NCBI RefSeq assembly: GCF_044647545.1
Contig: NZ_CP172818.1
From: Escherichia coli
GTDB lineage: Bacteria > Pseudomonadota > Gammaproteobacteria > Enterobacterales > Enterobacteriaceae
DNA length: 64,000 bases
Reading direction: 5' to 3' (one strand)
The notes beneath the pieces are model-generated. The model saw only the letters and a list, made by a program, of their open reading frames with translations, had not been told where the DNA came from and did no database searches. The position numbers and the translations under genes were made by a program. Each line of letters begins with the position of its first letter. Within the stretch, counting starts at the first letter, position 1. Shown here piece by piece: positions 27,372-47,695 of this stretch.

Positions 27372-27734
27372 GGGGCTGATTCTGGATTCGACGGGATTTG
27401 CGAAACCCAAGGTGCATGCCGAGGGGCGGTTGGCCTCGTAAAAAGCCGCAAAAAATAGTCGCAAACGACGAAAACTACGCTTTAGCAGCTTAATAACCTG
27501 CTTAGAGCCCTCTCTCCCTAGCCTCCGCTCTTAGGACGGGGATCAAGAGAGGTCAAACCCAAAAGAGATCGCGTGGAAGCCCTGCCTGGGGTTGAAGCGT
27601 TAAAACTTAATCAGGCTAGTTTGTTAGTGGCGTGTCCGTCCGCAGCTGGCAAGCGAATGTAAAGACTGACTAAGCATGTAGTACCGAGGACGTAGGAATT
27701 TCGGACGCGGGTTCAACTCCCGCCAGCTCCACCA
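27372..27734 (+). ncRNA. ssrA: tmRNA (transfer-messenger RNA)
   Basis: Begins GGGGCTGATTCTGGATTCGACGGG, contains the tag-reading frame GCAAACGACGAAAACTACGCTTTAGCAGCTTAA (ANDENYALAA-stop), ends GGTTCAACTCCCGCCAGCTCCACCA. Confidence 0.97.
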
Positions 27735-30422: not shown

Positions 30423-30635
30423 ATGAACAATCGATCGGCCGTTAGAATACTACGGTTACCAGCGGTTATCCAAAAAACAGGTATGGCACGGGCCACCATC
30501 TATGACTGGTTGAACCCCAAATCACCACGATACGATGCCACCTTTCCCAAAAAGCGAATGCTCGGCGTGAAATCTGTCGGATGGATTGAGGCCGAGATTG
30601 ATGAGTGGTTATCACAACGCTGTAAACTTATTTGA
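30423..30635 (+). CDS. alpA: AlpA-family prophage transcriptional regulator (excisionase-like HTH), 70 aa
   Basis: ORF track; translation MNNRSAVRILRLPAVIQKTGMARATIYDWLN... Confidence 0.92.
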   Translation: MNNRSAVRILRLPAVIQKTGMARATIYDWLNPKSPRYDATFPKKRMLGVKSVGWIEAEIDEWLSQRCKLI

Positions 30636-39134: not shown

Positions 39135-39488
39135 AACTCTTCTTTCTAAACGAACCAGTATAGAATTCGCCCTTTTGGCATGATATTAACTTGTCCAATA
39201 TGATCAAATAGCATTAACCCCCCCTCACAACGTCCTGCATAGGGAACACGTTTTCCCCTGTGCACCCACGACTAAATTTCCCCCCCTTTAAACTTCTCAA
39301 TAATGTCACCAATTTTCTGGAAATCCTATGATGCCTTTCCCGGTAAATGGTGCTGTGAGTTCAGAAAGATTCTGCAATCTATGTGCATTGAAAAAATCTT
39401 CAGATAGATATCATTCTCCTGAACAATCCGATGAACGGCAGAACCTCGCGGTTCTGCCGTTTTTGTTTTACTTTTCAGAGGAGTGGTG

Positions 39489-40352
39489 ATGAAAAATTTT
39501 GAAGTTCTGCAGCCACTACAGAACTCCCTTTCCGGTCTACCGCTATGGGTATCTGAACGTATATTGCAGCAGATAAATCAGTTAACCCACTACGAGCCAG
39601 TGATCGGCATCATGGGTAAAACTGGGGCGGGAAAGAGTAGCCTTTGCAATGCCCTGTTTGCCGGTGAAGTATCGCCGGTCAGCGATGTAGCGGCCTGTAC
39701 ACGTGATCCTTTACGCTTTCGCCTGCAGATTGGAGAACACTTTATGACCATCGTGGATCTGCCCGGCGTGGGCGAAAGTGGCGTTCGCGATACCGAGTAT
39801 GCTGCGCTGTACCGCGAACAACTTCCCCGGCTCGACCTGATTCTGTGGCTGATTAAGGCTGATGATCGGGCACTGGCGACTGATGAGCATTTTTACCGTC
39901 AGGTGATTGGCGAAGCATACCGGCATAAGATGCTGTTTGTTATCAGCCAGTCAGACAAAGCTGAACCCACCAGCGGTGGAAATATCCTTTCCACAGAGCA
40001 GAAACAAAATATCAGCCGCAAAATCTGCCTGCTGCATGAGCTATTCCAGCCCGTGCATCCGGTGTGTGCCGTGTCGGTTCGCCTGCAGTGGGGACTAAGG
40101 GTGATGGCAGAGCGGATGATTAAGTGTCTGCCGCGTGAGGCCAGCAGCCCGGTAGTAGCGCTACTGCAACATCCCTTTCGAACAACGGTAGCCCGGGAGC
40201 AGGCACGTGACGATTTCGGTGAAACCGTAGGTGCCATACTCGATACGGTAAGCACCTTTCCCCTTATTCCCGCCCCGGTGCGGACCATTATTCAGGCCGT
40301 GCGTTCCTCGGTGGTGTCAGTGGCCCGCGCTGTCTGGGATTTCTTCTTCTGA
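39489..40352 (+). CDS. yfjP: YfjP, prophage P-loop GTPase (YeeP/YkfA family), 287 aa
   Basis: ORF 39483-40352; ATG at 39489 five nt after GAGGAG; G1 motif GKTGAGKSS, DLPG G3 motif. Confidence 0.88.
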   Translation: MKNFEVLQPLQNSLSGLPLWVSERILQQINQLTHYEPVIGIMGKTGAGKSSLCNALFAGEVSPVSDVAACTRDPLRFRLQIGEHFMTIVDLPGVGESGVRDTEYAALYREQLPRLDLILWLIKADDRALATDEHFYRQVIGEAYRHKMLFVISQSDKAEPTSGGNILSTEQKQNISRKICLLHELFQPVHPVCAVSVRLQWGLRVMAERMIKCLPREASSPVVALLQHPFRTTVAREQARDDFGETVGAILDTVSTFPLIPAPVRTIIQAVRSSVVSVARAVWDFFF

Positions 40353-40380
40353 GTGTTTAATTCTGCCCTATTATTCTCCG

Positions 40381-40412
40381 AGCCCTGTCGCAAGTGCGGC
40401 AGGGCTTTCTTT
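40381..40412 (+). terminator. Rho-independent terminator after yfjP
   Basis: AGCCCTG-TCGCAAGTGCGG-CAGGGCT followed by TTCTTTATTT. Confidence 0.7.
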
Positions 40413-40443
40413 ATTTGTTTTACCCATACTGAGGAGTCTGCTT

Positions 40444-41263
40444 ATGACCCGTCTGGCTTCGCGCTTTGGCGCTGCAAACCAGATACGCCGTGACCGTCCG
40501 CTGACACATGAAGAACTGATACGCCATGTACCCAGTATTTTTGGGGAAGACCGGCACATCCCGCAGTGAACGGTATGCGTACATTCCCACCATTACCGTC
40601 CTGGAAAATCTGCAGCGGGAAGGCTTTCAGCCGTTCTTCGCCTGCCAGACCCGTGTGCGCGACCCGGGCCGCCGGGGATACACAAAACACATGCTGCGTC
40701 TGCGGCGGGCCGGAGAGATAAACGGAGAACATGTCCCTGAAATTATTCTGCTCAACTCTCATGACGGTACCTCCAGCTACCAGATGCTGCCGGGTTACTT
40801 CAGGTTCGTCTGCCAGAACGGGTGCGTCTGTGGCCAGTCTCTGGGGGAAGTGCGTGTTCCACACCGGGGAAATGTAGTGGAGAAAGTTATCGAAGGGGCT
40901 TACGAGGTGGTGGGCGTGTTTGACCGGATAGAGGAGAAGCGTGATGCCATGCAGTCGCTGGTCCTGCCGCCACCGGCACGCCAGGCGCTGGCACAGGCGG
41001 CACTGACTTACCGTTATGGTGACGAACATCAGCCCGTCACCACCGCCGACATTCTGACGCCGCGACGCCGGGAGGATTACGGTAAGGACCTGTGGAGCGC
41101 ATATCAGACCATCCAGGAGAATATGCTGAAAGGCGGGATTTCCGGTCGCAGTGCCAGAGGAAAACGTATCCATACCCGGGCCATTCACAGCATTGATACC
41201 GACATTAAGCTCAATCGCGCATTGTGGGTGATGGCAGAAACACTGCTCACGCAACTGCAGTAG
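40444..41263 (+). pseudogene. yfjQ: yfjQ (DUF932 family), apparently disrupted: 41-codon N-terminal frame ends at 40567, remaining 245 codons are in the +1 frame from 40526
   Basis: ATG 40444 with GAGGAG RBS encodes MTRLASRFGAANQIRRDRPLTHEELIRHVPSIFGEDRHIPQ-stop; the long ORF 40526-41263 is in a different frame; the total span (820 nt) is not a multiple of 3. Confidence 0.6.
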
Positions 41264-41479
41264 ACGTTTCATGTTGCCACGTTGTTAATATCGGACACCA
41301 CCTGTCCGCATCGCTATGTGCTCGTGTGCCTCAATCCCCCGGTTATAGCTTTTAACCCCCGTTACATCTGGCTTTTGCAGAAATAAAAAATAGTTTCTGC
41401 GTTGTCCATACCCTGTCCGCCCCCCTCTTTAAAGTAATCACATCATTTTCAGTCAGTTAACTTTCCTGGAGAATCTCTC

Positions 41480-43392: not shown

Positions 43393-43784
43393 CGGCTGCG
43401 CCTTCCCTACCATAACAACCCTGATTGCCTCCGGCGGTCGGGGGTTTCTTTTTTCTCCTTAATCTCCAGAGGTAGGCCACGTACTTTCGAACGATGAGCG
43501 CAGTGGTCAGTTTTTTTCAGATATATTTATCTTTTTTTGGCTGTAAGCTCCGCTGTGAGCGCAGGCTGTGTGAAAACTCCTGATCACTTCTTGGTCTAAG
43601 CGATGGTTTCATATGATCAACCATTCTTGATAAACCCATGCGACGAACTGACTTTTTCATTAAAATTAGAAATATACGAATGAATACTGCGGATACCGAC
43701 ATGGCCAATCACATTCAAGGACAAGGCAGGCACCAGGTGACATTACTCCCTGATGCACTGGATGATTTTGTCACTGAAGATAAC

Positions 43785-46805: not shown

Positions 46806-46826
46806 GGCTCCAATTGGAGCCTTTTT
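46806..46826 (+). terminator. Rho-independent terminator after yfjW
   Basis: GGCTCCAATTGGAGCC hairpin followed by TTTTT. Confidence 0.8.
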
Positions 46827-47227
46827 ATGACTATTTATTAAAATATCCTAAGTTAAGCCTGTTTTTAAAGCAGGCTTGAGCGTGAAGCGGACACTCATAC
46901 CTGCTTTAAAGTGGCGTTTTTGTCGTTACCCATACCTATATTTTCTGTTGTTTAACTGCCAGAACTGAGCGGTTGAAAAGCCAGAAATATGCCGAGCCAG
47001 CGGCATGGAAGCGCCAGCAGCTGTTGAATGGAGTACTGTAGGCAAATGGTGCCGTAACCGGCTTTCGTACTGAAAGGTTCTGTCTATCCCATCCCTTCTC
47101 TTGTATCTAACATTTAGTTGTGAATAGCTACTGTAAATGCCCCTACAAAATGAACCATTATTTTTAGAGGGCGTCTGGCACTCCAACTTCCGCTTTTGGC
47201 ACAGAACGGCCTATCAGCAATATAAAA

Positions 47228-47345
47228 GCATTCAGATATATATCATTTCTACAAACATACCCGATTAACGGCAGAATCTCAGGATTCTGCCGCTTTTTTA
47301 TTATTTTTCAGGGGAGTAGTAATGAGCAACTCTGAAGGTTGGTAG
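47228..47345 (+). other. Remnant of a second yfjP-like GTPase gene: conserved 5' leader with hairpin plus a truncated 7-codon ORF
   Basis: 47228-47321 is about 80 percent identical to the yfjP leader 39405-39488, including the CGGCAGAA...TTCTGCCG hairpin and the RBS; ATG 47322 encodes MSNSEGW-stop. Confidence 0.7.
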
Positions 47346-47695
47346 TCATTTTAGCAAACGCTTTCTGGTCTGCCGCAGTGGGCATCGGCTGATTGCGTAG
47401 CAGGGCCACTGGTATCTGCCGGTATCACCGACATTAACATTGAAGACGACCAGGGCATTCACGTCCGCCTGATAGTTCGTGATGCCGAAGGTCGGATGGT
47501 TGGCGGGCATGGAACTTTGAACCGGACGCCGGTGAAGGTTTTAACCGCTATATCCACAGGTCAGGCATCCGCACCGACACCTTCCCCCGCTGACTCCGAA
47601 TCATTTACCAGCAACATTTCACCTTCCCAAACGCGCTTTATTACCTCATACGCCAGCCATCGCCGCTGGCGTTTTTTATTCACGGAGACATACCC

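Follow-up and report, generated by a model that had tools for sequence, protein, structure and literature searches.

Why does the leader of a GTPase gene stand twice in one genomic island, once before an intact gene and once before seven codons, and what might such a leader do? The question is raised by a window of 64,000 nt from Escherichia coli (contig NZ_CP172818.1 of assembly GCF_044647545.1), which carries a CP4-57-type island downstream of ssrA (27372-27734); gene names in the window were assigned by homology to K-12. An earlier examination of the letters alone (hereafter, the sequence-only reading) had pointed to the stretch 47228-47345 as a second copy of the region upstream of yfjP. 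Comparative analysis identifies both stretches as copies of one conserved, putative 5' control cassette of about 115 nt that heads a GTPase module. We tentatively propose, giving it a little less than an even chance, that the cassette is an insulating, attenuating leader, in which a terminator-type hairpin is combined with fold-back masking of the Shine-Dalgarno (SD) sequence in read-through RNA. The second copy is a relic.

Comparison of the two leader copies

A blastn search within the window aligned 47231-47386 (copy 2) with 39399-39553 (copy 1) at 74.5% identity over 157 nt (E = 1.5e-21). The homology of both stretches is clear, as the claim of paralogous leaders had supposed, and the identity of about 80% given by the sequence-only reading is reproduced in its own coordinates, where 67 of the 84 yfjP-side bases match (80%). 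The stable hairpin with a U-tract that it had described is likewise present in both copies (13 and 10 pairs). The fold energies are -22.8 kcal/mol for copy 1 and -17.5 kcal/mol for copy 2, with z-scores of -5.5 and -5.4 against shuffled sequences, and the two stems are related by a single compensatory change from C:G to U:A. The conserved block starts about 20 nt 5' of the boundary given previously, at a -35-like hexamer (39388 in copy 1; 47220 in copy 2); a promoter-like box had been overlooked, as had the fact that the segment following it is complementary to the SD. The elements of the two copies are as follows.

39388-39414, + strand: copy 1 promoter-like box, comprising TTGAAA (39388-39393), a 15-nt spacer with TTCAGATAGA, and TATCAT (39409-39414)
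39415-39424, + strand: copy 1 segment after the box, TCTCCTGAAC, complementary to the SD region (anti-SD)
39433-39462, + strand: copy 1 hairpin of intrinsic-terminator type, 13 pairs, tail TTGTTTTACT
39436-39459, + strand: core of the copy 1 hairpin, CGGCAGAACC / GGTTCTGCCG, loop TCGC
39460-39488, + strand: copy 1 U-rich tract, pre-SD TTCAG (39474-39478) and SD AGGAG (39479-39483), followed by the yfjP ATG at 39489
39489-40352, + strand: yfjP, small GTPase (MMR_HSR1 / dynamin-N type)
47220-47246, + strand: copy 2 box, comprising a degraded -35 ATATAA (47220-47225), a spacer with TTCAGATATA, and TATCAT (47241-47246)
47247-47256, + strand: copy 2 anti-SD remnant, TTCTACAAAC; related copies have TCCTCTGAAC
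47269-47292, + strand: copy 2 hairpin, CGGCAGAATC / GATTCTGCCG, loop TCAG, 10 pairs, tail CTTTTTTATT
47293-47321, + strand: copy 2 U-rich tract and SD GGGGAG (47311-47316)

Distribution of the cassette and its promoter-like box

The cassette has the order TTnnAA-15-TATCAT, a pyrimidine-rich segment ending in UGAA, a GC-rich hairpin, a U-run, and the SD with the ATG, and it precedes GTPase genes of the yfjP/ykfA type, both on IncHI plasmids and in 12 or more genera. A profile search yielded 41 true copies, which reduce to 31 distinct sequences, from Escherichia, Citrobacter, Kluyvera, Buttiauxella, Siccibacter, Cedecea, Mangrovibacter, other genera and plasmids. When one genome per species was scanned under protein guidance, YfjP homologues turned up at 15 loci in about ten genera; a pattern scan of viral contigs gave 67 hits, comprising 13 true copies and chance matches to the AT-rich pattern; further copies were added from E. 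coli genomes and plasmids. Homologues of YfjP number 3360 proteins at E <= 1e-10 in a protein database clustered at 90% identity. The close protein hits listed included no distant relatives, all 120 of them being at least 86% identical; full-length homologues with 37-57% identity were obtained from a search of cluster representatives, and seven of their loci were inspected. A box can be recognised at every one of them (ATAT[C/T]A[T/C], five variable nt, TG[A/T]A).

Conservation starts abruptly at the -35-like hexamer, and the DNA 5' of it is unrelated between lineages. In five of the ten annotated contexts, and likewise on plasmid pNDM-CIT, the upstream neighbour is divergently oriented or is an insertion sequence (IS) element, so a local promoter is needed. 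Across 27 functional leaders TATCAT is invariant (2.0 bits of information content), followed by TGAAC (1.91 bits) and the 3' half of the spacer, TTCAGAYAKA (1.68 bits); the hairpin arms (about 1.4 bits), the ribosome-binding site (RBS, 1.31 bits) and the -35-like hexamer (1.26 bits) have lower values. The box occurs nowhere else in the window. Genomic SELEX (systematic evolution of ligands by exponential enrichment) placed a site of RNA polymerase (RNAP) with sigma-70 in the rnlB-yfjP spacer, and TTGAAA-15-TATCAT was named as the yfjPQ promoter (PMC3946193). TATCAT is a candidate -10 element, with a copy 1 start site near 39421 that is predicted solely from the usual 7-nt distance to the -10.

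Two other interpretations of this region were rejected. One took the box for an RNA hairpin or a perfect DNA palindrome (TTCAGA...TCTGAA), but its arms showed no covariation when the alignment was inspected by eye. A promoter between the hairpin and the SD would have 26-30 nt available, and the TATTAT of some lineages is absent in K-12-type yfjP. Uncharacterised open reading frames (ORFs) of 300-390 amino acids end at the box of the GTPase leader in some loci (L004 1076-1996, L088 563-1489, L093 328-1494; L numbers are our locus handles); their products have 20-23% mutual identity, without a Pfam or PADLOC match, and may be the ancestral upstream neighbour.

Selection on the hairpin and its terminator anatomy

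The sequence-only reading had proposed covariation analysis of the leader as a check, and the analysis clearly indicates a selected structure, with stem pairing conserved through compensatory changes. In the 31-sequence alignment 94.3% of cells are paired and both sides have changed at 8 of the 12 pairs; the covariation score is 0.324 vs 0.189 in shuffled alignments, and none of the 500 shuffles reaches 0.324. Shifting the partner by 1-3 columns lowers the pairing to 29-56%. RNAalifold finds the hairpin independently, and its consensus contains this helix alone. The excess of G.U over A.C cells (20 vs 10) points weakly to the + strand RNA as the form that matters.

The resemblance to an intrinsic terminator just 5' of the RBS, claimed from the letters, is matched by the anatomy of all close copies. 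The two stems in the window are GC-rich, with 10-13 pairs and 4-nt loops; across the close copies the median stem energy is -14.9 kcal/mol (n=31), and 5-7 T are present in the first 8 nt after the stem in 31 of 31 copies. The stem starts 21-23 nt after TATCAT in 30 of 30 measurable cases, and its end lies 28-30 nt before the ATG. With a gap of 26-30 nt between hairpin and ATG, no promoter fits in front of the SD, and all GTPase expression must therefore pass through the hairpin. The anatomy suggests that the hairpin may function as a terminator. In the distant set, five of the seven lineages keep a hairpin between the box and the SD, built on wholly different stems (CCCCGCG, GGCCATCC, GCCGGA, CGGCAGC, TGCAGC).

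Searches against Rfam 15 gave no match at the gathering score, the best sub-threshold hits being generic models of small RNAs (sRNAs) with a terminator (E 0.33 or worse). The RNAalifold consensus contains no alternative anti-terminator fold of the kind expected for a sensor-type attenuator, and about 15 nt separate the predicted start from the stem. A conserved leader peptide was also rejected: an ORF (39328-39489) crosses the leader of copy 1, but the upstream DNA is unrelated elsewhere and 1-nt indels break the frame. The same applies to a trans-acting sRNA running from the box to the U-run, whose 5' single-stranded part varies by lineage and whose complement elsewhere in the window is not above chance.

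Predicted fold-back helix over the SD

In the minimum free energy (MFE) fold of copy 1, the segment 39415-39424 pairs with 39474-39488. In many, not all, lineages the segment that follows the hexamer can pair with that lineage's own SD or pre-SD; the pairs include CUGAA/UUCAG, GUGAA/UUCAC, AAUGAA/UUCAUU, GUGAG/CUCAC, AUCCUGAA/UUCAGGAU, UUCCUU/AAGGAA and CUCUUUG/CAAGGAG. It always abuts the hexamer, even where the distance to the hairpin varies, and the helix encloses the hairpin in most MFE folds. This helix was at first rejected at fixed register and was revived by the lineage-specific complementarity in the distant relatives. Cognate duplexes have an energy of -7.24 vs -6.04 kcal/mol for non-cognate ones (permutation p = 3e-4), and a downstream control segment gave p = 0.28 in the same test. 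The predicted probability that the SD is unpaired has a median of 0.18 in RNA with the box vs 0.50 in RNA starting 7 nt after TATCAT, and SD accessibility is higher in the short RNA for 36 of the 37 leaders. The modelling moderately supports a fold-back layer that would be real but uneven across lineages.

Proposed action of the cassette and alternative explanations

In the proposed insulating leader, the hairpin with its U-run would be an intrinsic terminator that halts most transcription arriving from the variable upstream DNA, and it would also attenuate transcripts from the cassette's own promoter, so that the module is kept low. Read-through RNA would carry the segment that follows TATCAT, which would fold onto the SD and block translation; RNA from the cassette's own promoter would start within this segment, making the helix impossible, and would remain translatable. 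The predicted folds are consistent with such an escape of own-promoter transcripts from a block on read-through translation. This insulating logic suits a module whose upstream neighbours change with each rearrangement.

Several observations weigh against this proposal. The terminator lies 3' of the proposed promoter, so that the cassette's own transcripts would be cut too and leaky or assisted passage would be required. A 15-nt spacer and a weak -35 make a poor sigma-70 promoter; the SELEX peak is of low resolution, its hexamers having been picked from the sequence by the authors (PMC3946193), and two published start-site supplements contain nothing for either locus. The Term-seq supplement (PMC7815308) has no 3' end at either hairpin, although the genes are probably poorly expressed, which makes this silence uninformative. 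Among the five distant lineages that keep the hairpin, the U-run adjoins it in two and not in L099, L101 and L104, and two AT-rich lineages (L098, L103) are without a hairpin; termination is therefore not universal to the cassette. As for the fold-back, the anti-SD helix has no covariation at fixed register in the close-family alignment, and an upstream control segment, with much weaker energies, gave p = 2.5e-3 in the test of cognate duplexes, so the signal may be partly compositional. When the 5' segments were shuffled for comparison, about 15 of the 37 leaders proved to have specific masking and about 12 to have none, K-12 ykfA being among the latter.

The position of the terminator downstream of the promoter leaves room, therefore, for a factor-dependent antitermination switch, in which a protein would bind TTCAGAYAKA between the -35 and the -10, load onto RNA polymerase at the promoter and carry it past the terminator and the module hairpins. 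The spacer is better conserved than the -35 (1.68 vs 1.26 bits), which a plain promoter would not need, and the terminator stands at a fixed 22 nt from the box, just 5' of the first ORF. This is the layout of Pseudomonas aeruginosa alpB / PA0807, where the AlpA binding element lies between -35 and -10 and the terminator tB lies just 5' of the first ORF (PMC7969949). More same-strand terminator-like hairpins occur at 40380, 43419 and 47650, the island in the window encodes AlpA (30423-30635), and in distant islands the GTPase gene has a Phage_AlpA-family neighbour (immediately 5' and co-oriented in L099/L100; also in L104). We nevertheless regard such a switch as rather unlikely. E. coli AlpA gave no sequence match to the Protein Data Bank (PDB) chains of P. 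aeruginosa AlpA, the lone hit being another AlpA-family protein (E = 0.56), and homology of the two proteins was rejected as far as sequence comparison can tell; the box with the candidate binding element has no further occurrence in the window; and CP4-6 keeps the cassette, while the 17 kb of it that were inspected contain no AlpA-family gene. A repressor operator could account for the conserved spacer equally well, e.g., an operator for YfjR, the WYL regulator of the module, for which chromatin immunoprecipitation with exonuclease treatment (ChIP-exo) found no binding sites (PMC8464067). The more ambitious form of this idea, a portable self-insulating switch that keeps the module silent until a factor encoded by the element acts at the invariant TTCAGAYAKATATCAT box and takes RNA polymerase across the hairpins, is somewhat less probable again. 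If it were true, candidates for the factor would be an AlpA-family protein and the WYL regulator, and excision, transfer or phage attack might be the trigger; the GTPase, DUF932, antirestriction, RadC and CbtA genes would be induced together as a single programme, with E. coli AlpA-family proteins serving as antiterminators.

Two further explanations deny the hairpin a terminating role in GTPase expression. It could be structural and non-terminating, serving as a clamp for the anti-SD/SD helix, acting from near the 5' end to stabilise the RNA against RNase E or forming, together with the U-run, a platform for Hfq or S1, and control would then be purely translational, opened by temperature or by a small RNA. 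The hairpin is indeed nested in the long-range helix in the MFE folds of most leaders, L099, L101 and L104 keep it with the U-run placed beside the pre-SD strand, the site has no 3' ends in the Term-seq supplement, and the tnpA leader of IS200 has an Hfq-binding site just 5' of its SD (PMC4513863). Yet the full terminator anatomy of 31 of 31 close copies, with a GC-rich stem base next to 5 or more U, would be difficult to account for were termination irrelevant, and two relic leaders (copy 2 and L004 1986-2101) keep the hairpin and U-run after the decay of the box and the ORF, the one in L004 standing right after the stop codon of the upstream gene, where a terminator is useful; we assign this explanation a small chance only. 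Still less probable, in our estimate, is that the hairpin is merely the terminator of the upstream gene, without a role for the GTPase gene, and that the similarity of the copies reflects shared ancestry. The hairpin at 39433 is the sole terminator-like site after rnlB in the window, and a co-oriented upstream ORF ends at the box in L004, L088, L092 and L093; the hairpin, however, travels with the GTPase gene and not with the upstream gene, the upstream DNA being unrelated and half of the contexts divergent or IS-bearing. In addition, the box, the most conserved part of the cassette, sits between the upstream stop codon and the hairpin, and the 26-30 nt gap between hairpin and ATG excludes a promoter, so that GTPase expression must cross the hairpin.

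The AlpA-family genes of the distant islands lie at 1095-1334 in L099/L100 and at 45-254 in L104, and the GTPases of these loci are 37-42% identical to YfjP. In L099/L100 the gene is followed by a box-like ATATCAT...GTGAAC and a CCGGGG hairpin. The alpA gene of the window is 9 kb upstream of yfjP, with cargo genes between.

Comparison with known regulatory leaders

The nearest parallel to the proposed insulating leader is the fold-back inhibition of IS10 and IS50, which reportedly shields the transposase gene from external promoters (as described by Davis, Simons and Kleckner in 1985 and by Krebs and Reznikoff in 1986). In both cases a mobile-element gene has unpredictable upstream DNA, a segment at or upstream of its own start is complementary to the initiation region, and read-through RNA is masked while own transcripts are not; for the cassette, in which the complementarity is uneven across lineages, both the masking and the escape from it are predictions. 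Unlike in IS10/IS50, the gene here is a GTPase gene heading an island module and not a transposase gene, the start site is predicted, a terminator-type hairpin is nested in the fold-back helix, and masking is predicted in many lineages, not all. Promoter-loaded antitermination is represented by lambda PR'-tR' with Q. The likeness of the cassette to the lambda Q and AlpA systems is one of layout alone (an element within the promoter, a terminator before the first ORF and further terminators in the operon); the motifs are unrelated (TTCAGAYAKA here vs GGGACG-N5-GGTA for AlpA), and a cognate antiterminator is hypothetical for the cassette.

The left end of IS200 has a terminator against impinging transcription (nt 12-34), a start at about nt 40 and an SD-sequestering stem-loop in the 5' untranslated region (5' UTR) of tnpA (PMC4513863). 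It shares with the cassette, as proposed here, the combination of an intrinsic terminator and an SD-hiding structure before one mobile-element gene, with very low expression by design. The IS200 terminator, in contrast, is upstream of the start and its SD hairpin is a separate local stem-loop, whereas the terminator-type hairpin here is downstream of the promoter-like box and inside a predicted long-range helix, and there is no sequence similarity. Term-seq has mapped premature 3' ends in E. coli 5' UTRs (PMC7815308); these sites resemble the cassette in having a terminator-like hairpin between promoter and start codon, but the present site is not in that catalogue and the leader is too short for a sensor domain.

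The cassette is a new, unannotated member of an ordinary class, the attenuating, insulating leader on a mobile element, and a regulatory reading of it is plausible. If the ordinary reading alone holds, one more such attenuating leader has been added. The module from the GTPase to CbtA is among the commonest accessory gene sets in E. coli and its relatives, and the box, the covarying hairpin and the probable anti-SD segment give a handle on when its genes are expressed; such a control region would explain their apparent silence in standard transcriptome maps.

Copy 2 as a deletion relic

Downstream of the copy 2 leader the following features are found.

47322-47410, + strand: remnant of the second GTPase gene, first ~27 codons, with ATG at 47322 and stops at 47343 and 47352
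47425-47593, + strand: DUF905 pseudogene (ypjI), in frame with the GTPase remnant, with a 1-nt frameshift in common with strain 0H24
47650-47672, + strand: separate terminator-like hairpin directly 5' of the RBS of yfjX (lfgA)

The seven-codon ORF is present as described (ATG 47322-47324, MSNSEGW, TAG 47343-47345). Of the further claim, that the GTPase gene was deleted while its leader was kept, the deletion stands, but the loss does not begin at the ATG, since the first ~27 codons remain. Alignment to the intact GTPase genes of L034 and L091 and to other fusion copies, by which the extent of the remnant was set, shows homology for about 65 nt past the ATG, to roughly 47386-47410, with two stop codons inside. 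The translation reads MSNSEGW, stop, SF, stop, QTLSGLPQWASA... against MKNFEVLQPLQNSLSGLPLWVSE... in YfjP and continues as ...ITDINIEDDQGIHVRLIVRDAEGRMV, which is DUF905. The same GTPase-DUF905 junction occurs in three diverged lineages (the window, 0H24/L053 and L040/L051/L070), and in L053 the frame is open from the leader ATG into DUF905, up to the 1-nt frameshift in common with the window. L034 and L091 combine an intact GTPase gene with the upstream flank of copy 2 (CTGGCACAGAACGGCCTATCAGCA...).

CP4-6 keeps the canonical order, namely ykfA (GTPase), yafZ (DUF932), a WYL pseudogene, ypjK, yafY, ykfB, ykfF (DUF905), yafX and onward, and because it does so the extent of the deleted genes can be judged. 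In the simplest history that the sequences allow, copy 2 is a relic: a single old deletion removed about 4 kb, its left end falling at codon ~27 in a second GTPase gene and its right end near codon 20 in DUF905, and the resulting in-frame fusion then decayed independently in each lineage. The pseudogene ypjI is accordingly a GTPase'-'DUF905 fusion and not a simple truncated gene, which helps its annotation. Kluyvera georgiana has another relic leader, in a more advanced state of decay (L004 1986-2101), which lies 900 bp 5' of a working one; in this relic the hairpin and U-run are intact, and it stands directly 3' of the stop codon of an upstream ORF. The K-12 gene yeeP was considered as a third copy and rejected, being 5'-truncated and without a leader.

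Relation of copy 2 to the yfjX-ypjF operon

The sequence-only reading had suggested that copy 2 may now drive or gate the downstream module. It seems slightly more probable, on our estimate, that copy 2 is a functionless fossil under neutral drift that neither drives nor gates yfjX-ypjF. Its -35 equivalent is degraded (ATATAA), its ORF is dead, and its anti-SD segment is mutated (UUCUACAAAC), the predicted SD masking being gone (0.38 native vs 0.39 shuffled). In 0H24 the box is cut away by an IS3 insertion and the downstream genes are still intact, and the divergence between the K-12-type and 0H24 leaders resembles that of the adjacent pseudogene (86% overall). The MqsA footprint for the lfg (yfjX-ypjF) operon, with an ACAT-N2-ACAT site 245 bp upstream of the yfjX ATG, falls downstream of copy 2, within ypjI, and does not involve copy 2; no start site is given there (PMC10846083). 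On the other side, genomic SELEX found another RNAP-sigma70 site in the yfjW-yfjX spacer (PMC3946193), and each of the three fusion lineages has kept its hairpin and U-run intact. Furthermore, yfjW ends with its own terminator at 46806, and a promoter for yfjX-ypjF is therefore required somewhere in 46822-47695.

A match to the MqsA site, ACATTAACAT, is present at about 47443-47452, inside the ypjI pseudogene; the putative regulator site for the downstream operon is within dead coding sequence. The flank 47197-47212, which is common to copy 2, L034 and L091, contains TTGGCACAGAACGGCC, a sequence similar to a sigma-54 -24/-12 element except that its GC is shifted by one position, while the SELEX paper reads TTGGCA-19-TATAAA there as a sigma-70 promoter for yfjX (PMC3946193). 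A second terminator-like hairpin (47650-47672) lies between copy 2 and yfjX. It consists of ACGCCAGC...GCTGGCGT followed by TTTTTATTCA, has its U-run just 5' of the RBS in the same layout as the GTPase leader, and is kept in CP4-6 between ykfF and yafX (L018 10252-10230) and also in 0H24.

Island setting and gene order

The complete GTPase-led module comprises the GTPase, DUF932 and WYL regulator genes, then DUF905, antirestriction, RadC, DUF987 and a CbeA/CbtA-type pair, and is carried by CP4-type integrative islands and some IncHI plasmids. The island in the window is composed of two partial modules, one from yfjP to yfjT and the other from the relic leader to ypjF, with cargo (ars pseudogenes, yfjW) between them; the relic copies show the assembly of CP4-57-type islands from two such parts.

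Both leader copies are 100% identical to E. coli K-12, and so are their flanks; the window as a whole differs from K-12, with yfjQ about 73% identical and bearing a 2-bp frameshift and with the ypjA region diverged too. The closest complete genome over 39300-41400 is that of strain BS-04 (98.5% identity), and none of the complete E. coli genomes in the collection matches this interval at 100%. The yfjQ gene (DUF932, 40444-41263) is a divergent allele, with about 73% identity to K-12 from ~40480 on, and a 2-bp deletion splits it into two ORFs (40444-40569 and 40526-41263). Because the flanks, including both leaders, are K-12-identical, the divergent yfjQ suggests a recombination tract from a paralogous island.

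A module copy composed of the leader, GTPase, DUF932, WYL regulator, ypjK and yfjS is present on the IncHI1A plasmid pNDM-CIT (L095 3001-6092), and large IncHI conjugative plasmids with the same module occur in Citrobacter, Salmonella, Klebsiella, Enterobacter and Leclercia. A gene pair encoding a nucleotidyltransferase and a ThiF-type adenylyltransferase adjoins the plasmid module in divergent orientation. A same-strand terminator-like hairpin (40380-40407) lies between yfjP and yfjQ and has a counterpart with compensatory differences in CP4-6 (L018 13067-13046); another on the same strand (43419-43443) follows yfjT.

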